Assembly: GCA_021163105.1 (NCBI GenBank)
Contig: JAGGXJ010000074.1
Location: 520-64,519 of the forward strand
DNA length: 64,000 nucleotides
Direction: 5' to 3'
Origin: Syntrophobacterales bacterium
Lineage (GTDB): Bacteria > Desulfobacterota > Syntrophia > Syntrophales > UBA2210
The position numbers and the translations under genes are program-made. The notes beneath the pieces are model-generated. The model saw nothing but the letters and a program-made list of their open reading frames with translations, was not told the origin of the DNA and ran no database searches. Shown piece after piece: positions 4,321 through 48,687 of the stretch; position 1 is the stretch's first letter; each line of letters opens with the position of its first letter.

Positions 4321-4965
4321 ATGAAGGAGAATAATGTTCCGATCCAGAATGAATCAGGCAATTACCTGCCGGAACGCCGGATCACAGGTGTCGGCGCCAG
4401 TCCGAGGAAAAGCGGGAATTCAGATATCCTTATGAAACATATCCTGGGCGGAGCTAAGGGAAGTGGCGTCGCTGTTGAAGATGTACACCTTCGCGACTAC
4501 CAGTTTCAGCCATGTATAGGATGTGAGAAATGCAGAAAGGATAAGATATGTACCGGCCTCAATGATGGAATGCATCTCTTGTATCCGAAAATTATAGACT
4601 CCCAGGGGTTGGTACTCATATCGCCCACACACAACTATAATGTTACCGCATGGATGAAGGCATTTATAGACCGGCTTTATTGCTTTTATATTTTTGATAA
4701 TAACTGCCCGAGAGGCTGGTCAAGCCGTCTGGCGGGTCAGGGACGAAAAGCGGTCTTGGTGGCAGTCTGCGAGCAGGAAACAAAGAAAGACATGGGCTTT
4801 ACCCTCGAAGCAATGCGCCTTCCACTCGAAGCGCTGGAATATGAAATAACAGGCGAGTTAACCGTTTTTAGGGTGTTTGGCAGGGGAAAAGTTAAGGATG
4901 AAGAAGAAGTATTAGCCAGAGCCTCGAACCTCGGGGCTGCTCTGGCAGATTCCCTCCGAACTTGA
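4321..4965 (+). CDS. iron-sulfur flavoprotein-like NAD(P)H-dependent FMN reductase
   Basis: Flavodoxin-like start ITGVGASPRKSGNSD and a compact cluster motif CIGCEKCRKDKIC (CX2CX2CX5C). ATG at 4321; the track starts at the TTG at 4318. Confidence 0.75.
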   Translation: MKENNVPIQNESGNYLPERRITGVGASPRKSGNSDILMKHILGGAKGSGVAVEDVHLRDYQFQPCIGCEKCRKDKICTGLNDGMHLLYPKIIDSQGLVLISPTHNYNVTAWMKAFIDRLYCFYIFDNNCPRGWSSRLAGQGRKAVLVAVCEQETKKDMGFTLEAMRLPLEALEYEITGELTVFRVFGRGKVKDEEEVLARASNLGAALADSLRT

Positions 4966-5043
4966 TTTGAATCTGACCGCATAAACGTGTTAAGGTACCA
5001 CGTTGGAAGATTTAGTAAATACAAGGTTGTGTTTTTTCTTTAA

Positions 5044-5087
5044 CTTGACCCCTTGAACTCTTCTGATAACCACAACTAATCGTGAGA
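5044..5087. repeat. short dispersed intergenic repeat (ACAACTAATCGKGAGA family)
   Basis: cttgaccccttgaactcttctgataaccACAACTAATCGTGAGA aligns with 44411-44456 (..ccttgaaccctttcataattaactACAACTAATCGGGAGA). Both copies lie just 3' of a minus-strand gene. Confidence 0.6.
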
Positions 5088-5120
5088 TAATCCATTTATA
5101 TTAACAACATAAAATGCGGG

Positions 5121-6941
5121 TTAATCCTTCATCTTGGAGTGCCGTTTGCTCTTGTCTAGTTCCATTTTGCAAAGTCGGATACTTTCAGGGGTCACTTCGA
5201 TCAGTTCGTCTTCGGCGATGAATTCTATACATTGGTCTAATGACATACGCCTCGGAGGCCGCAGGGTTACCGTGGCATCTGATGTGGAAGCTCGCATATT
5301 GGTCAAATGTTTTTCCTTGGTTATATTTACATACAGGTCGCCGGGCCTATTTCGCTCCCCTATAACCATACCCTCGTAGACGTCTGATCCAATCTCGATC
5401 AAAAGTTCTCCCCGATCCTCCATGGCGAGACTCGCGTAAGGCGTAACCCTTCCTCCCCTGTCGGCAACCAGTGTTCCATTAGCCCGCTGAGGAATCGGGC
5501 CAAACCACGGCTCGTATCCTTCAAAGATTGTATTCATAACACCGGCGCCCTTTGTATCAGTCAGAAAATGGTTTCGGAAACCGATTAATCCACGAGATGG
5601 TATAATAAATTCAAGCTTGGTATGTCCACTGCCCTTGTTCATCAGGTTTGTCATGCGTCCCTTCCGTCTGGAAACTGTTTCCGTAATGATACCGATGAAC
5701 TCTTCCGGAATATCGATCAAAAGACGTTCGGTTGGTTCAAGAACCTGGCCTTTCTCCTCTTTTGTGATTACCTGGGGTTTGGATACCATGAATTCGTACC
5801 CTTCCCTGCGCATCGTTTCGATGAGAACGGCCATTTGCAGTTCTCCTCGACCGCAGACCTCAAACATGTTTTTTTGTGCAAGGAGTTTAATCTTCAGAGC
5901 AACGTTCCGCAGGGTTTCTCTTTCCAAGCGGTCTTTCAGGTGCCGTGAGGTCAAAAACTTGCCCTCGGTTCCGGCCATGGGACTGTTGTTGACATAAAAG
6001 GTCATTGAGACGGTAGGCTCATCGATATAGATGCGGGGGAGCGGTATCGGTTGCTCAAGAGAGGAGATAGTGTCACCGATTACCACGCGATCAACACCGG
6101 AAACAGCGATTATGTCGCCCGCTTCCACCCTGTCAACCTGCAGTTTTTCCAACCCTTCAAAGGTATACAGGGCCGAAAATTTTATCCCAGGTGTAACCTT
6201 CTCCAGTCCGCACAGGGAATAACTCCTGTTCATCTCCAAAATGCCGTTCGTCAATCGGCCGAGGGCAACCTGTCCGACATAAGGATCGTAGTCGAGATTT
6301 GTTATCAGAAGCTGCGGAACCGCGTCATCATCCGCCAGTGGCGCCGGGACATGGGAGATAATTGTATCGAACAGCGGTCGCAGATCCACAGAAGTATCTC
6401 CTTGCTTTCTGTGGGCAACTCCCGTTTTAGCATTGGTGTAGAGTATTGGAAACTCTATTTGTTCTTCAGTCGCGTCAAGATCTATAAAAAGATCGTACAC
6501 TTCATCGATAACCTCTGTTATCCTGGAATCGCTGCGGTCAATCTTGTTGATGACCACGATAATGGGCAACTGTTTGGCAAGCGCTTTTTTAACGACAAAA
6601 CGAGTCTGAGGCAACGGGCCTTCACTGGCGTCAACCAGCAGAATTGCCCCGTCAACAAGATTGAGGCTTCGTTCCACTTCCCCGCCGAAATCGGCGTGGC
6701 CGGGTGTATCAACAATGTTTATTTTAATATCGCCGTACTGGAGTGCGGTATTTTTTGCCATGATCGTGATGCCCCGCTCTCGTTCAAGATCCATTGAATC
6801 CATGACGCGTTCCGCTACCTGCTGATTTTTCCTGAAAGTACCACCCTGCTTGAGCATTCCGTCAATAAGTGTTGTTTTCCCGTGATCGACGTGAGCGATG
6901 ATCGCCACATTCCTGATATTGTGTTTCTGCAGATCTGCCAT
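5121..6941 (-). CDS. typA: translational GTPase TypA/BipA
   Basis: 606 aa. N-terminus IRNVAIIAHVDHGKTTLID, then DTPGHADFGGEVER and NKIDR G-motifs, with full-length BipA architecture. Confidence 0.95.
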   Translation of the reverse strand: MADLQKHNIRNVAIIAHVDHGKTTLIDGMLKQGGTFRKNQQVAERVMDSMDLERERGITIMAKNTALQYGDIKINIVDTPGHADFGGEVERSLNLVDGAILLVDASEGPLPQTRFVVKKALAKQLPIIVVINKIDRSDSRITEVIDEVYDLFIDLDATEEQIEFPILYTNAKTGVAHRKQGDTSVDLRPLFDTIISHVPAPLADDDAVPQLLITNLDYDPYVGQVALGRLTNGILEMNRSYSLCGLEKVTPGIKFSALYTFEGLEKLQVDRVEAGDIIAVSGVDRVVIGDTISSLEQPIPLPRIYIDEPTVSMTFYVNNSPMAGTEGKFLTSRHLKDRLERETLRNVALKIKLLAQKNMFEVCGRGELQMAVLIETMRREGYEFMVSKPQVITKEEKGQVLEPTERLLIDIPEEFIGIITETVSRRKGRMTNLMNKGSGHTKLEFIIPSRGLIGFRNHFLTDTKGAGVMNTIFEGYEPWFGPIPQRANGTLVADRGGRVTPYASLAMEDRGELLIEIGSDVYEGMVIGERNRPGDLYVNITKEKHLTNMRASTSDATVTLRPPRRMSLDQCIEFIAEDELIEVTPESIRLCKMELDKSKRHSKMKD

Positions 6942-7062: not shown

Positions 7063-7232
7063 CAGGAACAAAGGAAAGGCGGTAGGAACATGAATTTGAT
7101 AAAAAGATTATCGCCACCTCCGCTGTGATAATTATTCCATTGACTCGCAAGACAGGCTTTTTTATACTTTTCAGCACGAGAAAATTTTTTAATCCATTGT
7201 CTTTCCAGAAAACCGCTCAAAGGGTATCACTT

Positions 7233-8006
7233 GTGAAGATATGCATCCTTATATCCGACGATGTCTTTTTCAAACCCAAAGTCTTGTTTAACCTGTTAAT
7301 GAAAAGGGAAAGAGACGTTTGCCTGGTTGCCGAAGTGAAGGACGATATGAAAAACATAAAGAATAAGAAGCATCTGGCACCGCTGCAGTTTTGGGGAATA
7401 TGTAATATTCTACATCTGAAATTGACCGACCTTGTGATAAGGACACTGGCGCGATTTCTTCCGTCTTTTTTCCGTAGCTTTCTGGTAAATAAAGATGTTT
7501 GCGCTTTTTTCCGAGTGCCCTGGGTGAGAATTAAAAACGTTAACGATCCGAATTTTGTCAGACGCTTATCTTCGATAAATCCCGATCTCGTTATCTCGAT
7601 ACAGCGCCAGATTTTAGACGCAGACATCTTGGCCGTGCCGACAATCGCATGTGTCAACTGCCACCCGTCCAAACTTCCCAAATACCGGGGATTCTGGCCA
7701 ATCCTGCTTGCTATGATCAACGGGGATGAAACCATCGGCGTCACCGTGCACACAATGACGAAAAAGATCGATATGGGTCCAATCGTGGTCCAAAAGGAAT
7801 TTACTACATCACCGAGGTTAAGCCTGATGGACAACTATCGCCTTGCCTATGAGCTGTACCCTGAAGTTATTTGTGAAGCGATTGATCTGCTGGAAGAGAA
7901 GAAAAACCCCGGTTTCCCCTGCGTCCCGGATGATACCCCGTACTGTTCCGGCCCGACTGCGGAGGAGATGGAAAAATTCAAGGCCGGGGAACTTCGGATG
8001 CTTTGA
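7233..8006 (+). CDS. formyltransferase-family protein (Fmt/PurN-like N-terminal domain)
   Basis: Motif NCHPSKLPKYRG (N-x-H-x-S-x-LP-x-x-RG) followed by IDMGPIV. I prefer the GTG at 7233 (VKICILISDD, AAGGG upstream); the track ORF extends back to 7125. Confidence 0.7.
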   Translation: MKICILISDDVFFKPKVLFNLLMKRERDVCLVAEVKDDMKNIKNKKHLAPLQFWGICNILHLKLTDLVIRTLARFLPSFFRSFLVNKDVCAFFRVPWVRIKNVNDPNFVRRLSSINPDLVISIQRQILDADILAVPTIACVNCHPSKLPKYRGFWPILLAMINGDETIGVTVHTMTKKIDMGPIVVQKEFTTSPRLSLMDNYRLAYELYPEVICEAIDLLEEKKNPGFPCVPDDTPYCSGPTAEEMEKFKAGELRML

Positions 8007-8009
8007 GAA

Positions 8010-8513
8010 ATGTCCGAAAGAGAGATACAAATGAACAAACATGCCGAAAATCGCTGCAAGGACTGCAGCACTGACCAGAATTGCTGCAATCGCCTTGAGG
8101 GACTTCGTCTCACCCGAGCCGAGTACCGGAAGAATTTCGCCGATTATCATGCGGTACTGGTCGTACGACAGACGGGCAAGATTTATCGGGTCTCCGCGAA
8201 AAAAGGGCAATCCTGCCCGCACTGGGACGGGGATTGCCGAATCTATGACAAGCGTCCGATCGAGTGCCGGCTGTATCCCTATACAATCAGCAACCTCTGG
8301 GAATGGGGTAACCACGTTTTCATCACCTTTCATTCCAGAACAAAATGTCCCTTCAAGGAACACTTGCTGATTCCTCGCGATGCCGCGAAACAGATGGTTG
8401 CCAAATTTGCCCGGGAAGCATTCGGCGGTGGGTGCAGACCACACGTCTATTATGAGCCTCAGATCCCTGGATTAATCAGCAAAATTCGGGATTTTCTCAG
8501 CGTGTCGCCGTAA
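8010..8513 (+). CDS. YkgJ-family (CxxCxxCC, UPF0153) cysteine-cluster protein
   Basis: CKDCSTDQNCC near the N-terminus, then CPHWDGDCRIYDKRPIECRLYPY. It starts 4 nt after the Fmt-like stop. Confidence 0.7.
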   Translation: MSEREIQMNKHAENRCKDCSTDQNCCNRLEGLRLTRAEYRKNFADYHAVLVVRQTGKIYRVSAKKGQSCPHWDGDCRIYDKRPIECRLYPYTISNLWEWGNHVFITFHSRTKCPFKEHLLIPRDAAKQMVAKFAREAFGGGCRPHVYYEPQIPGLISKIRDFLSVSP

Positions 8514-8700
8514 TATGGCAATACAGAGAAGATACAAAAAGGAACAGCTTGATATTACTGCCCACAACATATAAAAGTAGCAATAGAGTCAGAACGATAT
8601 TTTCATTTTTGTAATTGGCTTTTTTGAAATTTTATACACACCAATATCCACAACATTTGTTGCTGAGACATGCAAATGAAAAGCCGGAAAGAGAAAGAAT

Positions 8701-9981
8701 ATGGAATCTGTTTGTATTGCGTACGCCGATGGATGCAGCAGGGCTGAAACCGAGATTGAACTGCTGGGCCAATACTTTGAGGCAAATGGGTTTAAACTGA
8801 AGGAGAGAATCGAAAACGCAGAGCTTGTACTGGTTTCAGCCTGTGGATTTGATCTGTGCTCGGAGAAAACCAGCATTAAGCTTTTACGTAAAGCTTTTAA
8901 GAAGAAAGGAGAGAAAGCGCGATTTGTGGTGACCGGTTGTCTGTCTGCTATTAACCGGGAAATAATTGTTGAAACTTTTGGCGATCAAGCCCTGTTGCTC
9001 CCTGCCCGATCTCTCGGAAAACTGGACGAGCTTATTTCAGCCAAGGTTCCGTTCAAGAAGATTATTGAGAAGGGTGATTTTTCCCGCAGCCTTGTTAAGA
9101 CCGATGTCAAACTGAGGAAAGAGCAGGCTGAATCAATCCTGGAATTTCCTCAAAGCTATAATCTGAAGGCTAAGAGAACATTCAGCAGTTTTGAAAGATT
9201 TATGGCGGCTCTTTTACTGACAAGGACGAAAATAGATGATCTGATTGCTCACTTTCCCAAGTGCCTGCAATTGCAATTCATCCGCCAGAGCCATCATCTT
9301 GTTCCTTCCCTGCTGCTGTCCCGGGGATGCCAGGGACAGTGCACCTATTGCGGGATACCCTCTGCTGTCGGTCCTCTGAAATCATTGCCTCTGGAGAGAA
9401 TCGCTGACAATTTTCGCTCTATTCTTGCACAGGGCAACAGGGTGATTGGCCTGGTGGCAACCGATGTTGGTTCATATGGGCAGGATAACGGGTCCAGTGT
9501 AGTGGAACTGTTCCAGAGATTGTTTGCTTTCGACGAAAAGTTTCAGTTGATCATAAATGATTTTAACCCGCGCTGGCTGGTTGAATATTCTGATGACCTT
9601 ATAGATCTTTTTGCCGCCAATGCGGATAAGATCGATTATATTCTCATGCCGATTCAGTCAGGTAGCGAAAAAATCCTCTCACTCATGAAACGGAGGCATA
9701 CGGCTTACGAGGTACGGGAGCATATGCTGGCCTTGAAAAAGGCTGTTCCGGGTATTCATATCGGTACACATGTCATGGTGGGTTTCCCTGGGGAAACAGA
9801 GGAAGATTTCAATGCCACACTTGATTTCTTGAAAACAATTAATTTTTATTACATGAAAGTGTTCAAGTATGATGACCGACCCCGGATTGAAGCGGCAAAG
9901 CTACCGGACAAGGTGCCGGAGAAGATCAAAAGGAGACGGCTACTGAAACTGATCCGGGAGTTCCATGAACTGGTGAAATAA
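8701..9981 (+). CDS. radical SAM enzyme with a methylthiotransferase-like N-terminal domain and no visible TRAM domain
   Basis: N-terminal Cys triad (ADGCSRAE, VSACGF, VTGCLS) and the radical SAM motif SRGCQGQCTYCGIP. The protein ends soon after the rSAM core. Confidence 0.7.
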   Translation: MESVCIAYADGCSRAETEIELLGQYFEANGFKLKERIENAELVLVSACGFDLCSEKTSIKLLRKAFKKKGEKARFVVTGCLSAINREIIVETFGDQALLLPARSLGKLDELISAKVPFKKIIEKGDFSRSLVKTDVKLRKEQAESILEFPQSYNLKAKRTFSSFERFMAALLLTRTKIDDLIAHFPKCLQLQFIRQSHHLVPSLLLSRGCQGQCTYCGIPSAVGPLKSLPLERIADNFRSILAQGNRVIGLVATDVGSYGQDNGSSVVELFQRLFAFDEKFQLIINDFNPRWLVEYSDDLIDLFAANADKIDYILMPIQSGSEKILSLMKRRHTAYEVREHMLALKKAVPGIHIGTHVMVGFPGETEEDFNATLDFLKTINFYYMKVFKYDDRPRIEAAKLPDKVPEKIKRRRLLKLIREFHELVK

Positions 9982-10012: not shown

Positions 10013-11167
10013 TTAAAGTCTCTTGTCGCGCATTAGAAAAGATGCCGCATATTGCCATACATCCAAAGAGTATTTGAGACACCGCCACGCAATGCGTCGG
10101 TGAAACGGCAAATGGCTGTCATAGACGGCGTCATATTCAATGCAGGACTCAGCGCCTCGAAACACCTTAAATGAACCAGCACCGGCGCTCAGGTTTAACA
10201 ACCGGCTACTCATTTCTGCTCTGGTCATCGTAGCCGAGAAATCCTGGCGATTTAATCCAACACTCAGAGGCATCCGCGTATCGTGCCCGCTAAAACCTGA
10301 TATCATGACTCTTTCGTTAGAATAACAACAGGAGAAGGCATCAATACTGCCATTCTTTTCCAACGCATGAATCTCTAATATTTTTTCTTTGAGCATCAGG
10401 CGGAAAAAATTCTCATTCAACTGAGGGTTAAAAAAAGAGTGTTTCTCCAGATAAAGATCACGGTATAATTTAGCCAGTACCGGGACATCGGTCTCGGCTA
10501 ACTGGTCGGCATCCACGATTTTATACCCCATTCTTTTTGATAAATTGCGATCGTGTTTCACGGTTTTATTTTTCCAATATGCCTTCCTGGTGGTATCCAG
10601 TATATAGATCTGTCGGCTTCGAACCATACTATAACCATTTTCCCGGAGAGAATCGAAAATCGTCTTACATGTGTATGTGTTGACAGACCGGAAGACAATT
10701 GCATAATCCGGATACCTGAGTTTTAAGGCGGATGTAATCGTCCCGACCTGTTCCGGAGACAATTCAAAACAGGGGTTCGTAGAAAGAAGCCAGTTATTTA
10801 CATATATAACTTTATCAACCCGGCCCGCTTTAAGAATCAGGGCAAAAGGCAGTGAGCATGCCTTCAGCAGCCATGCGATGGGACGGTTGTCTAATTTCTC
10901 GATCTCCTCTATAGCGTATTTCACATAATGTGTATAGATTGAGCACACATTTGAATTATGGTAATTTCTTTCGGCCAGCACAAGCGGCATCAGCACATCA
11001 TCTATTATCAGGGCCATCATTTTGACATTAGCATTATCCATGTAGAAGAGAGATCCGTTTTTAATGAAAGGCACCACATATCTTCTCGTAGAATCCGATT
11101 CCTCATTCACCGGCCAATCTATCGAATCCACATTATCTATATCGATAATTTGTATTGATGAAGCCAT
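10013..11167 (-). CDS. hypothetical protein, possibly a FemAB/BioF2-like GNAT-fold acyl/aminoacyl transferase
   Basis: A clean 384-aa ORF. The C-terminal half (LYRDLYLEKHSFFNPQLNENFF...LEIHALEKNGSIDAFSCCY) recalls Acetyltransf_6/FemAB-like proteins. This assignment is from memory only. Confidence 0.35.
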   Translation of the reverse strand: MASSIQIIDIDNVDSIDWPVNEESDSTRRYVVPFIKNGSLFYMDNANVKMMALIIDDVLMPLVLAERNYHNSNVCSIYTHYVKYAIEEIEKLDNRPIAWLLKACSLPFALILKAGRVDKVIYVNNWLLSTNPCFELSPEQVGTITSALKLRYPDYAIVFRSVNTYTCKTIFDSLRENGYSMVRSRQIYILDTTRKAYWKNKTVKHDRNLSKRMGYKIVDADQLAETDVPVLAKLYRDLYLEKHSFFNPQLNENFFRLMLKEKILEIHALEKNGSIDAFSCCYSNERVMISGFSGHDTRMPLSVGLNRQDFSATMTRAEMSSRLLNLSAGAGSFKVFRGAESCIEYDAVYDSHLPFHRRIAWRCLKYSLDVWQYAASFLMRDKRL

Positions 11168-11199: not shown

Positions 11200-11973
11200 C
11201 TATATAGTAAATGAATCAAACAATCTGCGTTCCGCTTCCTCTTCAATCTTCGCGGTCACTTCCACAAAAGGTACCAGGGGCGAATTTTCCAGCTTGTTAC
11301 GCAACAATTCATCAATTTGAAAAATGCCGGCCGAGTTGGCCAGCTTGATTTCAATGCATACCGGTTTTTTTGTCCCCTTTATAATGTTCACACTATCCAC
11401 AGCCTGTGCGGACACTGAATGAATGTTTACCTTTCCCGCTTCAAAGGGAATCCGGGAACGACCCCCGGTAATGTCTGTCGCGTCGGCTACTTTGAGGGCG
11501 CCCGCTTCGATAGTAAGACATTTCTCATTTGCGTCATGGGCAATAATGGCGTGCAGGGTTTCAGATACCATTGTTGTCAAATCGGGTTCAATGTAAATTC
11601 CCTCCAACAATTCGCGTGCTTTGCGAAAGGCTATCAACAGGCTATACTTTTCATGGTTATCCCGGTGCACCGAAATCCCGGTATCGTGCAGGCAGGCCGC
11701 CACTACCACAATCAACTCCGCATCTTCGCTAGTTAAATCATGATGTGTTACTACACTTGGCTCAACACCATTCTCGACTAACAGCCGGATAATGCGTAGC
11801 GCGGCATTGGCAACAATACGAATATGCACCTCGCCGTGATCACTTATGCCTGAACGATCCACCGCATTGATATTCGCGCATCTCCAGAGTTGAAACAACT
11901 CCTGATCCGCGTTAATTTTATCTACCAGAGTTCGTAATTTTTTGTTTTTACGTAAGGGTATTTTAAATTCCAT
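11200..11973 (-). CDS. HD-domain metal-dependent phosphohydrolase
   Basis: 257 aa with DHGEVHIRIV ... AACLHDTG (H...HD signature). Confidence 0.7.
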   Translation of the reverse strand: MEFKIPLRKNKKLRTLVDKINADQELFQLWRCANINAVDRSGISDHGEVHIRIVANAALRIIRLLVENGVEPSVVTHHDLTSEDAELIVVVAACLHDTGISVHRDNHEKYSLLIAFRKARELLEGIYIEPDLTTMVSETLHAIIAHDANEKCLTIEAGALKVADATDITGGRSRIPFEAGKVNIHSVSAQAVDSVNIIKGTKKPVCIEIKLANSAGIFQIDELLRNKLENSPLVPFVEVTAKIEEEAERRLFDSFTI

Positions 11974-12262
11974 AGATATCCTTTCCAGGTATCTATAAGC
12001 CGCCGTAATAACATTTTCAATGGCTGGTCATACCGGCTTTTCTCGCCGGAATATCAAAATTTCTGACCGCAGTCACCACAATAAGATCCATTTTTATCAA
12101 TCAATTATAATAGTATATCATAGTACTGCATAATGCAAAGGGTCAGATGCATCCGTTGACATCACATTAAAATTTCTGATAGGAGAGTGGATACGCATAC
12201 AGCGTCAAATGTTTGCGGTACATCTCTGCCCTTCTTCTATCAATGGACAGGTAAAGGAAAAT

Positions 12263-13450
12263 ATGGATCAGATAATATCTGAGATTATAAGATTTACAGG
12301 TGCGGCAGAAGATCGCCTGTTTCCAACCACATACGGTCGAACGGCGCTTCTATTGGCGCTGAAGAGCGTTCCGGTGCGAGGCAGAGAAGTTATTCTTCCC
12401 GCGTTTACATGCCCGATTGCCGTTTTAGGTGCTGTAATCGAATCCGGAGGAATCCCTGTATTTGTTGATATTAATTTGAAAAACCTCAATTTTGACCTTA
12501 ATGATCTGCGCCGGAAGATCACCAAATCTACCGCGGCCATCATCTCTCACCACTATTTTGGTATGGCTAATCCTGAAGTCGCTATAAATGGACATATGGC
12601 AAGAAAACACGGCCTGATTCATATTGAAGATTGCACCCATTCACTGGGAGCACAATTCCAGGATTGTCCTGTTGGAAAGATCGGTGACCTCGCAGTATAC
12701 TCATTCTCCAAAAATATGATTTCTCCGCAGGGAGGTTTGCTGCAGTGTAATTCGGATGGATTAATAGAGAAAGTTCACACTCTGTATAACCAGAATTCCA
12801 CCGGCAGGATAACCGGATTGCTGGCTAATCTTGAATTCCTTACTTTTTTCTGCCGATTGTTGATCGTAAGAAAATTGTTTCAGTCGGTAAACACTCGCTT
12901 TAAACCAAATTCACTGCCTTACCGTGTTCCGCCTTTATTATATATGCCATTCAGGCTTGCAGATATCTTTTTGAAAACTCAACATTCCTCCGGCAGGTTT
13001 TATTACGTCAGCAAAGAAAATGTATTGAAAGACCCATCAACCGTCGTTATTAGAATGACCGATTTTCAAAAACATATCATTCGTAGCCGGATCGGACTGC
13101 TGCACCAAATGAATGCAAAAAGACGGGATATAGCTGAAAGGCTTAACGAGATCGTGCCCCCTTTTTTTCTCCAAGAAAAGGCTCAACGCTCTGTGTATAC
13201 AAATTATGTATTCTGCACTTATGATAAAGCCAGGGTGTTATCTCTGGCAAAGAAGGCAAGCATCCTCTTCACCGAAACCTGGCCGGCGAGAGGCAAATAC
13301 TGGAAAGAACAAAACACAAAGAATGTTGAGAGGCTCAAACGTGAAGTTCTTCTTCTGGGCATCTCTCCCTATTGGTCAGAAAAAGAAATCCGGGAAGTGG
13401 AAAACTTTTTTTATAAAAATAAAGACCTGTTTTTCAATCCCCCGGGTTAA
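12263..13450 (+). CDS. DegT/DnrJ/EryC1/StrS-family PLP-dependent aminotransferase-like protein
   Basis: TYGRTALLLALK, LPAFTCPIAV and DLAVYSFSKNMISPQGG (SFxxxK lysine). I prefer the ATG at 12263 (AAGGA upstream) over the track start at 12209. Confidence 0.7.
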   Translation: MDQIISEIIRFTGAAEDRLFPTTYGRTALLLALKSVPVRGREVILPAFTCPIAVLGAVIESGGIPVFVDINLKNLNFDLNDLRRKITKSTAAIISHHYFGMANPEVAINGHMARKHGLIHIEDCTHSLGAQFQDCPVGKIGDLAVYSFSKNMISPQGGLLQCNSDGLIEKVHTLYNQNSTGRITGLLANLEFLTFFCRLLIVRKLFQSVNTRFKPNSLPYRVPPLLYMPFRLADIFLKTQHSSGRFYYVSKENVLKDPSTVVIRMTDFQKHIIRSRIGLLHQMNAKRRDIAERLNEIVPPFFLQEKAQRSVYTNYVFCTYDKARVLSLAKKASILFTETWPARGKYWKEQNTKNVERLKREVLLLGISPYWSEKEIREVENFFYKNKDLFFNPPG

Positions 13451-13505: not shown

Positions 13506-14204
13506 TTATTTCATTTCCAGGGCCAGATCTACCGCACTCTCCACATGTAATCTGGTGGTATCAAACAAAGTCACAGGTGTTTGATCCTGACCAACCAGCA
13601 ACGCGATCTCCGTACAGCCGAGGATGACCGCTTCGGCGCCTTCTGCCGCGAGTTTTTCAATTATCCGCAGATACTGATCTCTGGACTCTTCTTCAATTTT
13701 TCCCAGGCATAACTGGTTGTAGATTACATTATGAACTATCTCCCGATCAGATCGGTCGGGTATATATACTTTTAATCCATATTTGCTTTCCAACCGACCT
13801 TTATAAAACTCCTGTTCCATTGTAAATTTTGTGCCAAGCAGACCTACGGATTCTATCCCCTTAGATATAACCTTCTCAGCTGTAGCATCCGCAATATGCA
13901 GTAATGGGATATCAATGCTTTGCTCTATTTGGGGAGCCACCTTGTGCATTGTATTTGTACAAATAACCAGAAAATCGGCCCCGGCAGTCTCTAAACCTGA
14001 CGCCGCACGGCTCAAAATTTCAGCGGTTGAATCCCAGTCTCCCAGATGCTGTAATCTTTCAATCTCATCAAAATCAACGCTGTATAAGCATAGTTTTGCG
14101 GAGTGAAGCCCACCTAATCTGGCCTTTATACCTTCATTTATCATCCGGTAGTAAGTAACGGTTGATTCCCAGCTCATACCACCGATCAATCCTATTGTCT
14201 TCAT
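13506..14204 (-). CDS. aspartate/glutamate racemase family protein (aspartate racemase-like)
   Basis: 232 aa. MKTIGLIGGMSWESTVTYY plus the two Cys-containing motifs (VICTNTMH, ILGCTE). Confidence 0.85.
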   Translation of the reverse strand: MKTIGLIGGMSWESTVTYYRMINEGIKARLGGLHSAKLCLYSVDFDEIERLQHLGDWDSTAEILSRAASGLETAGADFLVICTNTMHKVAPQIEQSIDIPLLHIADATAEKVISKGIESVGLLGTKFTMEQEFYKGRLESKYGLKVYIPDRSDREIVHNVIYNQLCLGKIEEESRDQYLRIIEKLAAEGAEAVILGCTEIALLVGQDQTPVTLFDTTRLHVESAVDLALEMK

Positions 14205-14544: not shown

Positions 14545-15396
14545 ATGAAGATTCAACAACTTCTGCAGCAGGCCAGATCGGATCTTGACGTCCGGGGATT
14601 ACCCACACCCGGGCTGGATGCGGAACTTCTGCTCGCGTTTTCTATTGACAGAGAACGTCATTTCCTTTATGCGCACCCCGCGAAGGAACTTTCCAGCATG
14701 GAACTGAAACAATTCCGCTCGCTGATCGCGAGGAGGATAAAGAAAGAACCGGTTGCCTATATTACCGGGAGAAAGGATTTCTGGTCGCTGGGAATTGAGG
14801 TCACTCCGGATGTACTGATACCGAGACCCGATACAGAGATTCTGATCGAGGAGGTGTTAAAGCTTTCCTTAAGGGAGGCGGAAAAGGGTCTCAGGATATT
14901 AGAGATCGGCACCGGAAGCGGGGCGATCAGCATCGCGCTTGCCTCCGAGCTTGAAGATGCTGCCATCACGGCCACGGATCTTTCCACTAAGGCTCTCGCG
15001 GTTGCCGCGAGAAACACCGTGAATAATAACGTGAAGGGAAAAATTTCATTTCTACGCGGAGATATGTTCGAACCCGTCGATGAAAAATTTGATATAATCG
15101 TTTCAAATCCTCCATATATCTCCGAGGGTGAATTCGAATTACTCACCGCTGAGGTCAGAGAGTACGAACCCCGCCGGGCGCTTGTCGCCGGTCCGGAGGG
15201 CACGGAATTTCACCGGAAACTCGCTCGTGACGGGAAGCGATTCCTGGAGAGAAACGGCTGGCTTGTCATGGAAATGGGTGCGGATCAGAGATTTGCCCTC
15301 GAGAAAATGCTGAAAGATAGAGATTATTGTGATATTACCTTTCGCTCAGATTATGCCGGGATAGAACGAGTCGCCATGGCGAAAAAGAGGGGATAA
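14545..15396 (+). CDS. prmC: peptide chain release factor N5-glutamine methyltransferase
   Basis: 283 aa with the SAM motif [12 protein letters not shown] and the catalytic NPPY. Confidence 0.9.
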
Positions 15397-17992: not shown

Positions 17993-18067
17993 GCGGGCGT
18001 AATTCAGGGGTAGAATGTCAGCTTCCCAAGCTGAATGTCGTGGGTTCGAATCCCATCGCCCGCTCCA
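17993..18067 (+). tRNA. tRNA-Gly (anticodon CCC)
   Basis: Acceptor GCGGGCG/CGCCCGC; D stem ATTC/GAAT; anticodon stem TCAGC/GCTGA with loop TTCCCAA; T arm GTGGG-TTCGAAT-CCCAT; discriminator T; encoded CCA. Confidence 0.9.
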
Positions 18068-18115
18068 ATTTTTTGGTTGCAAAAAAGTTTTTGCTGTGTT
18101 ATCAGCACCCAAGAA

Positions 18116-18137
18116 GTGGGCTTTGCCCGCTTTTTTT
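18116..18137 (+). terminator. rho-independent terminator after tRNA-Gly
   Basis: GTGGGC-ttt-GCCCGC followed by TTTTTTT. Confidence 0.6.
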
Positions 18138-18154
18138 ATTTTTTATGGTGCAAA

Positions 18155-18634
18155 ATGAATCCTTCAAGTCTATCATATCGCGAAAAGATAATAGAGCTGG
18201 TTGAACCGGTCATTGAATCTGAGAAGATGGAACTTGTCGACGTCGAGTGCCCCAAGGGGAAAACCCGCTGGATGGTCAGGATTTATATAGACAAAGAAGG
18301 TGGGGTAAGCCTTGATGATTGCGCCATGATAAGCGGTGAAGTTGGTGACCTTCTCGATGTAAATGAGATCCCTCCCGGTTCTTACTCTCTTGAAATATCA
18401 TCACCGGGCCTTGACCGTCCACTTGCCAGGGATAAAGATTTCATAAGGTACGCGGGACAGATAATCAAGATTCGCGTTGCCGAAAAGATAGAGGGGAAAA
18501 AGAATCTCAAGGGCAGGCTGGTGGAGCTTATCGAAAAAGAAGGAGAGAAGATCGTCGTTATAAACGTGGAGGGAAAAGTTTATAACATACCGCGCAGTAT
18601 GATAGTAAAGACAAATCTTCAATATGAATTTTAG
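18155..18634 (+). CDS. rimP: ribosome maturation factor RimP
   Basis: MNPSSLSYREKIIELVEPV...SLEISSPGLDRPL. The track ORF (18035) runs through the tRNA, so I use the in-frame ATG at 18155. Confidence 0.9.
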   Translation: MNPSSLSYREKIIELVEPVIESEKMELVDVECPKGKTRWMVRIYIDKEGGVSLDDCAMISGEVGDLLDVNEIPPGSYSLEISSPGLDRPLARDKDFIRYAGQIIKIRVAEKIEGKKNLKGRLVELIEKEGEKIVVINVEGKVYNIPRSMIVKTNLQYEF

Positions 18635-28190: not shown

Positions 28191-29366
28191 ATGAAGAAAC
28201 ACAAGGTAAATAAAACATATAGAGAAATAAATGAGAAGATAAAAGAAGGCAGAGCCGTAATTGTCACCGCGGAAGAGATTATAGATATTGTGGAGAAAAA
28301 GGGAGACATCGCGGCGGCCAGAGAGATAGATGTCGTAACTACCGGAACCTTCAGTCCCATGTGCTCATCGGGTGCATTTCTCAATTTCGGTCACACCTCT
28401 CCTAAGATAAGAGCCTCAAAAGTATGGCTCAACGATGTTTCCGCTTATGGCAGCATTGCCGCAGTGGATTGTTATATCGGAGCCACCGAGGTAGTTGAAG
28501 GAGATCCCCTCAACAGCATACATCCCGGCGAGTTTAATTACGGTGGAGGGCATGTAATAGAAGATCTCGTGGCGGGTAAGGTTATCCGCCTGCGCCTTGA
28601 ATCCTATGGCACCGATTGCTATCCCGCCCGGAAGCATGAAAAGAACGTTACGATACATGATCTCAGGGATGCTGTTCTTTTCAATCCCAGAAACGCCTAT
28701 CAGAATTACAATTGCGCGGTGAACATGTCCGACCGGACAATCTATACATATATGGGTGTGTTGAGACCCGATATGGCGAATGCGACCTATGCCACATCGG
28801 GACAATTAAGCCCTCTATTGAATGATCCTTATTTTAAAACCATCGGCATAGGCACAAGGATATTTTTAGGTGGCGCCCAGGGGTTTGTGGCCTGGCCCGG
28901 CACTCAGCACAATCCCGATGTGCTGAGAGGTAAGAACGGCGTCCCGAAAGAGGGGGCCGGAACGCTGGCAACGATAGGAGACCTGAAGGATATGAGCCCG
29001 GAGTGGCTTGTGGGGGCAAGTATGCTCGGTTATGGTGTATCCCTTTATGTGGGAATAGGAGTACCCATACCAATACTCAATGAAGAGATGATACGCTATA
29101 CCGCTGTCAGAGATCGAGATATATATGCGCAGGTTTACGACTATGGCGTTGATTATCCTAACGGAGTTTCGAAGAGTATCGGTGAAGTAAGCTATAAAGA
29201 GCTGAGAAGTGGTAAGATAAAACTCAACGGCAGGACTATACCTGCTTCACCCATGTCCAGCTATTATAAAGCAAGAGAAATCGCCGTCATACTTAAAGAC
29301 TGGATTGAGAAAGGAGAATTCCTTCTTGGTGAACCTCAGCAGCTTCTCCCTTCCAACGGTGATTGA
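28191..29366 (+). CDS. DUF39/COG1900-family protein (putative homocysteine biosynthesis, aspartate-semialdehyde sulfurtransferase-like)
   Basis: 391 aa. The N-terminus KTYREINEKIKEGRAVIVTAEE...DVVTTGTFSPMCSSGAFLNFGH is characteristic of the family. No CBS or ferredoxin extension. Confidence 0.7.
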   Translation: MKKHKVNKTYREINEKIKEGRAVIVTAEEIIDIVEKKGDIAAAREIDVVTTGTFSPMCSSGAFLNFGHTSPKIRASKVWLNDVSAYGSIAAVDCYIGATEVVEGDPLNSIHPGEFNYGGGHVIEDLVAGKVIRLRLESYGTDCYPARKHEKNVTIHDLRDAVLFNPRNAYQNYNCAVNMSDRTIYTYMGVLRPDMANATYATSGQLSPLLNDPYFKTIGIGTRIFLGGAQGFVAWPGTQHNPDVLRGKNGVPKEGAGTLATIGDLKDMSPEWLVGASMLGYGVSLYVGIGVPIPILNEEMIRYTAVRDRDIYAQVYDYGVDYPNGVSKSIGEVSYKELRSGKIKLNGRTIPASPMSSYYKAREIAVILKDWIEKGEFLLGEPQQLLPSNGD

Positions 29367-40934: not shown

Positions 40935-42011
40935 ATGCCGGAAAATCTTTCATTCCTCGCGGGGAGAAAAGCGTTACCGATGATCAGGGAGGATAGCCTT
41001 CATCCCGATCAGGTAAAGGTTGTAACCGGGGCGGCCGGCGGCCCGAAATGTCTTATTCTGAATCATCTCGACGGTGCTATTTTCTCAACATGGTTCGCCG
41101 ATAGAAAAACCCCCCTGTTTCTGTTAGGTTCTTCCGCGGCCGCATGGAGGTTCGCTTCGGTTTCACAGAAAAAACCCCTGGAAGCCATCGACAGGTTTCG
41201 GACCACATATGTACACCAGCACTATTCCCTGAAACCCACGCGGGAAGAGATTACCAGCGAAAGCATCGCTTTTATGGACACCTTCCTCGGTAAAACAGGC
41301 GTAGAAGAGATACTGAATCATCCATATCTGAGACTGAATATAATGTCGACCAGGTGCAGGGGACTGACTGCAAGTGACCGGGTGGGTGCGCTTCTGCCCG
41401 GAATGATTCTCGCCGCCCTTTCCAATATCATCAGCCGGAAGTTTCTTGGCCTCTTTTTCGAAAGAACACTGTTGTATGATCAGAGAGAAATTCCTCCATT
41501 TTTCGACATGAACGGTTTCCCTATCAGGCAAGTTTCTCTCACCGAGAAAAATTTCAGGCAGGCATTACTGGCATCCGGGTCCATCCCCGTAGTCATGTCC
41601 CGTGTCATTGATATACCGGGCGCTCGAAAGGGCACCTACAGAGACGGTGGCATAATAGATTACCACATGGACATACCCTTTACAAAAAATAGTGATGACA
41701 TCGTTCTCTTCCCACACTATACAAATCGCGTCATACCGGGATGGTTTGACAAAAAGCTGCCATGGCGAAAATCGGATCCGGTGAATATGGAGAACGTGCT
41801 CCTCCTGCATCCATCCGAGGAGTTTGTAAAACGGCTCCCATATGGAAAGATACCAGACCGGAACGATTTTCATCTTTTCAATGGCAGGGATGACGAACGC
41901 ATAGATTACTGGAACAGGGCCATAAAAGAAAGCGAGCGGCTGGGAGAGGAATTCCTCGATGCCGTTCAGACCGGAAAAATCCGCGAACTGGTAAGACCCA
42001 TGCCGGAATGA
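40935..42011 (+). CDS. patatin-like phospholipase family protein
   Basis: 358 aa with an oxyanion-type GAAGGPK, a nucleophile-elbow variant LGSSAAA, and YRDGGIIDY (catalytic Asp DGG motif). Confidence 0.6.
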   Translation: MPENLSFLAGRKALPMIREDSLHPDQVKVVTGAAGGPKCLILNHLDGAIFSTWFADRKTPLFLLGSSAAAWRFASVSQKKPLEAIDRFRTTYVHQHYSLKPTREEITSESIAFMDTFLGKTGVEEILNHPYLRLNIMSTRCRGLTASDRVGALLPGMILAALSNIISRKFLGLFFERTLLYDQREIPPFFDMNGFPIRQVSLTEKNFRQALLASGSIPVVMSRVIDIPGARKGTYRDGGIIDYHMDIPFTKNSDDIVLFPHYTNRVIPGWFDKKLPWRKSDPVNMENVLLLHPSEEFVKRLPYGKIPDRNDFHLFNGRDDERIDYWNRAIKESERLGEEFLDAVQTGKIRELVRPMPE

Positions 42012-48494: not shown

Positions 48495-48515
48495 TCAAAA
48501 GATGCTAAACTTTAT

Positions 48516-48600
48516 TTCCCTACGCTGGCATTACCCAGATCCGGTTCAAAGGGTATCATCTCAGCCTGGGATCATTATGCCCAAGCACCCCTGAATCTTC
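48516..48600 (-). promoter_or_regulatory. TPP (THI-box) riboswitch aptamer
   Basis: Minus-strand read: cAGGGGTGCttgggcataatgatcccaGGCTGAGAtgatACCCtttGAACCggATCTGGgTAATGCCAGCGTAGGGAA. All conserved THI-box blocks are present and in the correct order. Confidence 0.92.
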
Positions 48601-48687
48601 AACCTAATATTCTATTCCAAACTTTGATTATAAGCAAGAGAAAATTTCAATTGCAAAAAAATGCCACCTCGTCTGCGAGATTCGCCC

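Follow-up and report, generated by a model that had tools for sequence, protein, structure and literature searches.

We describe a block of three genes in a Syntrophobacterales bacterium (GenBank assembly GCA_021163105.1, contig JAGGXJ010000074.1, positions 520 to 64,519; these 64,000 nucleotides are the window, and coordinates refer to it). All three lie on the + strand and code for an Fmt-like formyltransferase (7233..8006; 257 aa, GTG start, catalytic domain only), a YkgJ/CxxCxxCC cysteine-cluster protein (8031..8513; 160 aa, with an alternative in-frame ATG at 8010), and a radical S-adenosylmethionine (SAM) enzyme that resembles the methylthiotransferases (MTTases) and has no TRAM domain (8701..9981; 426 aa, UPF0004 plus radical SAM core). 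This radical SAM enzyme is part of a large TRAM-less clade, and most contexts recorded for distant members of this clade are polysaccharide loci. This clade-level link, which extends past the window coordinates, is in our view the most interesting result of the analysis. We propose, with a probability of about 40%, that the trio is a lineage-restricted accessory cassette for the tailoring of an envelope molecule that bears an amine, either a glycan sugar or a lipid head group.

The three genes (ORFs at 7233-8006, 8010/8031-8513, and 8701-9981) were first noticed in a reading made from the letters alone (hereafter the sequence-only reading), and they are real. Their dN/dS values against orthologues (0.12-0.22 for the Fmt-like gene, about 0.21 for the YkgJ gene, and 0.13-0.18 for the radical SAM gene; 0.12-0.23 overall) indicate purifying selection and, therefore, functional genes and not chance open reading frames (ORFs). 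The window proteins are identical to NCBI entries MCD64865xx.

A TRAM-less branch of MTTase-like enzymes

The radical SAM protein matches PF00919 (UPF0004) at 45.6 bits and PF04055 at 79.7 bits. The cysteines C12/C48/C80 and C210xxxC214xxC217 are invariant among 27 relatives, which bears out the N-terminal three-Cys domain of an MTTase-like enzyme that the sequence-only reading had recognized. The same reading had recognized no TRAM domain and had argued against MiaB, RimO, or MtaB, and both points hold. The TRAM models PF01938 and PF18693 are unmatched even at E<=10, and the alignment ends at residue 352 of RimO (4jc0) and residue 382 of MiaB (7mjv), just ahead of their TRAM domains. The tail past the FPGET motif is 65 aa long versus 124-165 aa in TRAM-bearing enzymes, and the 49 residues between the end of the Pfam radical SAM domain and the C-terminus make the earlier estimate of about 60 roughly right. 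The best sequence match in the PDB is RimO. The protein scores 237 against a cutoff of 251 for the TIGR00089 family, and it is under every equivalog cutoff (MiaB 187/355, RimO 184/357, MtaB 189/357, and MiaB-like-B 193/315).

A neighbour-joining tree was built from 117 sequences, 76 of them TRAM-less and 41 TRAM-bearing (E. coli MiaB and RimO plus 39 others, some named MtaB or RimO in their source; e-MtaB references were left out), and 60 bootstraps were scored by most-recent-common-ancestor tests. All 76 TRAM-less sequences group together, with no TRAM-bearing member among them, in 59/60 bootstraps, and TRAM-bearing sequences are absent in 60/60 from the subclade that holds the window enzyme and the glycan-locus homologues. 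The window enzyme is thus placed outside the MiaB, RimO, and MtaB clades. Among the 6255 radical SAM homologues, about the best 75 carry no TRAM annotation and are 345-476 aa long. The loss of TRAM is nothing special to this locus; a large clade has it.

Close orthologues of the radical SAM enzyme (64-89% identity) are confined to the same lineage as the window. For the distant TRAM-less members (30-43% identity), eight of ten independent contexts are polysaccharide loci (O-antigen, exopolysaccharide (EPS), or capsule), where the neighbours of homologues at 30-37% identity include Wzy, Wzx, Wza/Wzc, Bac_transf, WecG, GT2/GT4, RmlB/RmlD, and PglD-like proteins. By locus (L numbers), we found GT28/GT4, PMT_2, and a deacetylase in L002-4; Wzy, three GT2, an epimerase, Polysacc_deac_1, and AMP-ligase/acyl carrier protein (ACP)/KASIII in L005/6; Bac_transf and PglD-like acyltransferases in L008; Wzy, GT2, and GT4 in L178; Poly_export in L179; Wza, Wzc, Bac_transf, WecG, and Polysacc_deac_1 in L180; a hexapeptide acyltransferase, a methyltransferase, and Wzx in L099; and RmlB/RmlD, Wzx, and PGA_cap in L100. 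Polysacc_deac_1 directly adjoins the radical SAM gene in three contexts. The context of L007 was uninformative, and the contig of L098 was too short to give one. L098-L100 were the useful loci among the matches listed in a metagenome scan with the radical SAM alignment, the others being mostly canonical MTTases.

As its branch elsewhere sits in polysaccharide gene clusters, the window enzyme probably acts on the cell envelope and not on RNA. Up to 2023, MTTases were known to act only on derivatives of A37 in tRNA and on Asp88 of the ribosomal protein S12 (PMC10702137), and we found nothing on TRAM-less or polysaccharide-associated MTTases in the literature searched. A clade that keeps both clusters and sits in O-antigen, EPS, and capsule loci offers a concrete starting point for testing whether glycans or lipids undergo a new kind of radical sulfur insertion, and its context suggests unrecognized sulfur-containing sugar modifications.

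Two unrelated glycan loci (L005, 10350-14022, and L008, 9967-12417) have a module in common, in which the radical SAM gene is followed by genes for a small protein of 109-135 aa, an adh_short protein, and an AMP-binding protein; the L005 module additionally holds ACP and KASIII. This common module suggests that the TRAM-less clade may act in unusual N-acyl-sugar pathways.

The formyltransferase and the cysteine-cluster protein

The Fmt-like protein matches PF00551 at 71 bits in Pfam, and Formyl_trans_C (PF02911) is unmatched. Its best NCBIfam models are 'formyltransferase' PRK06988, ArnA, and then fmt, all far under their cutoffs: TIGR00460 scores 76.8 against 201.5 (257 aa versus a 315-position model), and the ArnA model scores 80 against 777 with the formyltransferase part alone aligned. 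Among PDB sequences, the ArnA formyltransferase domain ranks first (61 bits), followed by Fmt (50) and the stand-alone sugar N-formyltransferases (around 40). In the ArnA alignment, the Asn-His-Asp triad is kept through the NCHPSKLPKYRG and KKIDMG motifs, and the SxLPxxRG motif is intact. The GTG start agrees with the N-termini of the orthologues and with the NCBI annotation.

The YkgJ protein matches PF03692 at 25.8 bits against a cutoff of 23 and is annotated by NCBI as a 'YkgJ family cysteine cluster protein' of 160 aa. Nine of its cysteines are invariant (C9, C12, C18, C19, C62, C69, C79, C106, and C135), and the spacing of the motif C9xxC12x5C18C19 departs from the nominal CxxCxxCC. A profile search against PDB sequences gave no match, no RNA-binding domain was found in the protein, and the AlphaFold2 (AF2) model, with a pLDDT of 42, is too poor to use. 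FliB is, as the sequence-only reading had it, the one characterized relative of the motif; its Cys motif holds a single O2-sensitive [4Fe-4S] cluster, which is required for SAM-dependent lysine N-methylation (PMC8598068). By analogy with FliB, we predict that the YkgJ protein binds Fe-S or Zn (PMC8598068). The Fmt-YkgJ pairing is a second test case, after FliB, for the widespread and almost unstudied CxxCxxCC/YkgJ domain.

The sequence-only reading had the YkgJ ORF start 4 nt after the Fmt stop. An in-frame ATG does exist at 8010, 3 nt past that stop, but NCBI and all orthologues start at Met 8031, which leaves 23-24 nt between the Fmt stop and the conserved Met at all loci. The two genes are therefore tightly linked, and probably neither overlap nor abut. 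A word-indexed search of 5.8 billion proteins returned 13 Fmt-like and 9 YkgJ proteins, with identities of at least 53% and at least 58%, respectively, for the homologues of the lineage, and no Fmt-YkgJ fusions or distant adjacent pairs. Every locus with either lineage gene has the two side by side (at least seven loci, L001, L009-L012, L015, and L018, in three contexts). The adjacency is restricted to one narrow Syntrophales/'Deltaproteobacteria' lineage of metagenome-assembled genomes (MAGs). The sole remote Fmt-like homologue, P0150 (40% identity, locus L013), is flanked by two DegT genes and a small GNAT gene, and it has no YkgJ neighbour. The pair that had been suggested to be obligate is constant within the lineage, L015 and L018 included, but not beyond it, and its conservation elsewhere is weak. 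The pairing is undescribed in the literature that we searched and phylogenetically very restricted.

These domain assignments bear on a role in translation, in which the TRAM-less enzyme would methylthiolate a tRNA or a ribosomal protein, its substrate being recognized in trans, and aminoacyl-tRNA would be the substrate of the Fmt-like enzyme. All characterized MTTases do act on tRNA or S12 (PMC10702137), RimO is the best PDB sequence match of the radical SAM enzyme, the fold family of a neighbouring GNAT protein (see below) uses aminoacyl-tRNA, and the flanks are rich in translation genes (TrmO, BipA, PrmC, RimP, NusA, and TruB). However, the trio lacks TRAM, the C-terminal tRNA-binding domain of Fmt, and any RNA-binding domain in YkgJ, and the radical SAM clade stands apart from MiaB, RimO, and MtaB with relatives in glycan loci. 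The translation-gene context is incidental, because a related locus without the trio (L019, described below) keeps the same flanking translation genes. We consider a translation role very unlikely.

Linkage of the genes across genomes

The interval between bipA (5121-6941, -) and prmC (14545-15396, +) holds seven genes. Behind the trio come a convergent gene for a tandem-GNAT transferase with the fold of Fem and of the aminoacyl-phosphatidylglycerol synthase (aaPGS) domain of MprF (10013..11167, -; 384 aa), its stop 31 nt from that of the radical SAM gene, and, upstream of it on the same strand with a gap of 32 nt, a gene for an HD-domain phosphohydrolase-like protein (11200..11973, -; 257 aa, PF01966 at 22.9 bits). 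These are followed by a DegT/DnrJ/EryC1-like pyridoxal phosphate (PLP) aminotransferase gene (12209..13450, +; 413 aa, with a divergent C-terminal half) and a gene for an Asp/Glu racemase family protein (13506..14204, -; NCBI name, with PF01177 in orthologous loci). The racemase gene lies at the edge of the variable block, and its membership is uncertain.

The window-type order (bipA< Fmt> YkgJ> rSAM> <GNAT <HD (DegT>) <racemase, where rSAM is the radical SAM gene) is found in full in the window, in L001/L021 (without DegT and with a PAS gene inserted), and in L009, and L010-L012 are shorter contigs that follow it over the part covered. The insertion in L001, a 2.6-Mb Syntrophales chromosome, codes for a 613-aa multi-PAS protein (4331-6172) between bipA and the Fmt-like gene. 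In L018 (Syntrophaceae), the rSAM<YkgJ<Fmt block is inverted and divergent from the GNAT gene, which it still abuts. Next after the GNAT gene come a DegT-like gene, which differs from that of the window, and an MprF-type flippase-like gene (PF03706/TIGR00374); the fetched flanks of L018 hold no bipA, HD, or racemase gene. One MAG, Deltaproteobacteria bacterium AB_1215_Bin_93 (JRC90; locus tags JRC90_05145 and JRC90_07290), is represented by two contigs. Its L019 has racemase, DegT, HD, and GNAT genes and then bipA after 229 nt, the trio being missing as a clean block of about 3 kb. Its L015 has Fmt-YkgJ without the radical SAM gene in an unrelated context, and the YkgJ ORF there is uncalled yet intact (83% identity). 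The L015 pair lies beside aldehyde dehydrogenase fragments and a SpoIIAA-like gene, and the N-terminus of its Fmt has a frame change. Two short contigs from bins of unrelated phyla, L020 (1.9 kb, Zixiibacteriota) and L022 (3.6 kb, Latescibacterota), carry HD, GNAT, and radical SAM genes 67-96% identical to those of Syntrophales; this occurrence is probably a case of mis-binning and possibly one of recent transfer.

The spacer between the YkgJ and radical SAM genes (8514..8700) measures 187 nt, as the sequence-only reading had given it, and is AT-rich (GC 0.33). In orthologous loci, it is 187-424 nt long, AT-rich, and unalignable, with no conserved small ORF or precursor peptide and no Rfam match (riboswitch or other RNA). 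The radical SAM gene is not coupled obligately to the pair, given this long and unconserved spacer and the Fmt-YkgJ pair of JRC90 without a radical SAM gene on the contig examined. The sequence-only reading made no mention of two genes that accompany the trio in two arrangements, those for the convergent Fem/MprF-like transferase and the DegT-like protein. The tightest unit is Fmt-YkgJ; the trio behaves as a block, which has a tendency to lie next to the GNAT and DegT genes. No link in this series is obligatory, and the evidence is all from one narrow lineage.

It is possible, though on balance somewhat unlikely, that there is no joint pathway and that Fmt-YkgJ is a self-contained unit next to an independently transcribed radical SAM gene kept by common descent, so that we see synteny only. 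The AT-rich, unconserved spacer of 187-424 nt is consistent with a separate promoter. JRC90 has Fmt-YkgJ without the radical SAM gene while its BipA locus has none of the three; all trio-bearing loci are in one narrow lineage; and the distant members of the radical SAM clade that we examined never have Fmt or YkgJ neighbours. However, the inverted and relocated block of L018 keeps its gene order and strand though its other fetched flanks differ, the gap in L019 is clean, with all three genes absent together and GNAT and BipA standing 229 nt apart, and no + strand terminator-like site lies between the YkgJ and radical SAM genes.

The neighbouring transferase and aminotransferase genes

The 384-aa GNAT protein itself has no Pfam match, and its closest homologues match PF13480 Acetyltransf_6. 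Its family, which has conserved motifs of its own, counts about 1157 cluster representatives. The AF2 model (pLDDT 95.6) finds Sba18/Sbb17, MprF/aaPGS synthase domains, and FemX as its top Foldseek matches (probability 1.0, template modelling (TM) score 0.43-0.52), and a profile search of the family against PDB sequences gave no match. Aminoacyl-tRNA is a candidate donor, although the fold relatives also include users of acyl-CoA (the tandem GNATs 2wpw and VipF). Some members are natural fusions: the nearest representative, P0151 (745 aa, 53% identity), has a radical SAM/SPASM maturase-like domain attached, and P0179 and P0188 each carry a class I SAM methyltransferase. We also considered a conserved pair of a radical SAM gene and a convergent GNAT gene and dropped it, the 384-aa protein and the convergent GNAT of L003 having no similarity.

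Distant members of the GNAT family occur in Bacillus, Brevibacillus, Chloroflexota, Chlamydiota, Myxococcota, and others (loci L023-L097), and none of these 75 loci has an Fmt, YkgJ, TRAM-less radical SAM, HD, or DegT partner. They lie in a recurrent cluster with KASIII, ATP-grasp, metallo-beta-lactamase-type (MBL) hydrolase, NAD-epimerase/3beta-hydroxysteroid dehydrogenase (3beta-HSD), AMP-ligase, and sometimes DUF3419. The cluster also holds a protein of about 450 aa without a Pfam match that is adenylate-forming-like by eye. The whole looks like an undescribed lipid or acyl-amino-acid pathway.

The HD protein is 86-94% identical in L001, L009, and L019. The DegT-like protein matches PF01041 at 133 bits over profile positions 45-202 of 360 only (the N-terminal half), the Schiff-base Lys is kept in an SFSKN motif as read from the sequence, and the ArnB model scores 70 against 631. 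Its gene is present in L009 and L019, and it may be called differently or not at all in the source record, because its exact sequence is absent from the protein collection. The racemase gene is present in L001, L009, L019, and L022 and absent from L018.

These neighbours raise the possibility of a soluble small molecule, a natural product or a signal. In that case, a Fem-like, aminoacyl-tRNA-dependent enzyme that forms peptide bonds would build an amino-acid-derived scaffold together with the PLP enzyme and the racemase, to be N-formylated and methylthiolated afterwards. In structure, the GNAT protein comes closest to the aminoacyl-tRNA-dependent peptide synthases Sba18/Sbb17 of streptothricin-type pathways; P0151, its nearest relative among the family representatives, has a radical SAM/SPASM domain fused to it; Asp/Glu racemase and DegT-like PLP enzyme genes are adjacent; and there are no glycosyltransferases in the window. 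Nevertheless, we regard this product as decidedly unlikely: we found no transporter, nonribosomal peptide synthetase/polyketide synthase (NRPS/PKS), precursor peptide, or resistance gene and no small conserved ORF, the context of the radical SAM clade is overwhelmingly one of polysaccharide loci, and the GNAT and DegT genes of L018 are succeeded by one for a flippase-like membrane protein.

Proposed role of the cassette

For the envelope-tailoring cassette that we favour, the putative substrate would carry an amine that comes either from the DegT-like PLP enzyme, acting on a keto-sugar, or from the tandem-GNAT enzyme, through transfer of an aminoacyl group. In the presumed order of steps, the ArnA-like formyltransferase would then N-formylate this amine with N10-formyl-tetrahydrofolate as donor. 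The YkgJ protein, co-translated with the formyltransferase and perhaps in a physical complex with it, would give a Cys-ligated Fe-S (or Zn) centre as a redox or structural partner, or it could possibly be a FliB-like subunit that modifies the amine. Finally, the TRAM-less enzyme would abstract a hydrogen atom by means of its radical SAM cluster and, through its three-Cys auxiliary cluster, would deliver sulfur or a methylthio group to an unactivated carbon of this non-RNA substrate. An envelope role is further suggested by sequence comparisons in which ArnA is the nearest solved relative of the Fmt-like protein and the remote homologue P0150 lies among DegT and GNAT genes. Also in favour are the glycan-locus contexts of the radical SAM clade, the constant Fmt-YkgJ adjacency, the inverted trio of L018 that still adjoins the GNAT gene, the Fem/aaPGS fold of the GNAT protein, and the cluster-binding Cys motif of FliB.

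Several observations weigh against this proposal. No glycosyltransferase, nucleotidyltransferase, dehydratase, flippase, or polymerase gene lies near the cassette in the window, the window has no export genes, and the flanks are housekeeping (BipA, PrmC, MurA, HisD, and RimP-NusA). Among the glycan-locus radical SAM homologues examined, none has Fmt-like or YkgJ neighbours, and the function may differ, since the window enzyme is only 30-43% identical to them. TRAM-less MTTases are without any biochemical data (PMC10702137). DegT is absent from L001, and the trio is dispensable in MAG JRC90, being missing from its BipA locus. In that MAG, no radical SAM gene was found within the fetched 10 kb upstream and 7 kb downstream of the Fmt-YkgJ pair of L015, and the GNAT-HD-DegT-racemase block stays without the trio, so the genes are not strictly interdependent. 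Finally, shared ancestry may explain much of the co-occurrence, since all carriers are closely related MAGs.

The trio pathway is thus a hypothesis that rests on few related MAGs, and its immediate reach is limited because only a few uncultured Syntrophales MAGs are known to have the trio. A bolder version would make the TRAM-less clade the first MTTase branch to act on carbohydrates or lipids in place of tRNA or S12, where it would put sulfur or methylthio groups on envelope polysaccharides, with the Syntrophales member recruited together with an ArnA-like formyltransferase dependent on an Fe-S YkgJ protein and the Fem/MprF-like transferase for a new N-formylated, sulfur-bearing head group; we think this unlikely.

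Other features of the window

A sigma-70-like promoter match lies 5' of the Fmt-like gene (7140..7168, +; TTGACT-17-TATACT, 10/12 matches). It is a weak candidate only, because such sites are as frequent in the region as expected from shuffled sequence. The remainder of the window is housekeeping (TrmO, MurA, HisD, RimP-NusA, TruB, PNPase, pilMNOPQ, HrpA, and AmiC), and PADLOC found no defence-system matches. A tRNA gene (17993-18064, +) between hisD and rimP overlaps the longest rimP ORF (18035-18634) over its initial 30 nt; with this overlap, the true rimP start is probably further downstream. A homocysteine-biosynthesis sulfur-incorporation enzyme, HcyBio (PF01837, 524 bits), is encoded at 28191-29366 (+); the HcyBio route is an alternative methionine-precursor route typical of anaerobes. 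A 358-aa ORF at 40935-42011 (+) matches no Pfam family at E<=1e-5, and a thiamine pyrophosphate (TPP) riboswitch lies at 48500-48602 (-; 59.3 bits against a gathering score of 54.3).

Comparison with known systems

Like MiaB, RimO, and MtaB, the window radical SAM enzyme has a three-Cys UPF0004 domain for an auxiliary [4Fe-4S] cluster and a CxxxCxxC core, shares the GFPGET(E/D)EDF motif, and is 27-36% identical to the radical SAM cores of RimO and MiaB. Unlike them, it has no TRAM domain, its inter-domain linker is about 60 residues longer, and it falls in a separate clade with relatives in polysaccharide loci and not in translation contexts.

The YkgJ protein resembles FliB in its N-terminal Cys motif (C9-x2-C12-x5-C18-C19) followed by further conserved cysteines, nine in total; FliB has 8 conserved Cys, and its own CX4CX3CC was likened by its authors to the CX2CX2CC of PF03692 (PMC8598068). 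The likeness rests on that motif comparison, and the YkgJ gene, in contrast to FliB, has no flagellar context.

With the sugar N-formyltransferases and the ArnA N-domain, the Fmt-like protein shares the Formyl_trans_N fold, the N-x-H-x-S-x-L-P-x-x-R-G motif, and the catalytic Asp, and its 257 aa are similar to the size of the stand-alone sugar formyltransferases (VioF, Rv3404c, and WbtJ-type). However, its first 95 or so residues are off profile and its scores are far under the cutoffs. It also differs from the Arn pathway, which adds 4-amino-4-deoxy-L-arabinose (Ara4N) to lipid A, in having no ArnA dehydrogenase domain, and the window has no ArnC, ArnD, ArnT, GT2, or deformylase. To our knowledge, no characterized sugar formyltransferase has been reported to need a YkgJ partner, and the pairing with a YkgJ protein sets the Fmt-like protein apart from all of these. 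A DegT-type aminotransferase gene near the Fmt-like gene recalls ArnB or VioA in the ArnA and sugar formyltransferase systems.

The 384-aa protein is a distinct family from the Fem, aaPGS, and Sba18-type enzymes, with 8-16% sequence identity and a TM score of only 0.4-0.5. Nevertheless, its predicted structure has two GNAT domains in the arrangement of Fem and the MprF synthase, and the succession in L018 of a GNAT gene, a DegT-like gene, and an MprF-type flippase-like gene is a further likeness to the Fem/aaPGS/MprF systems.

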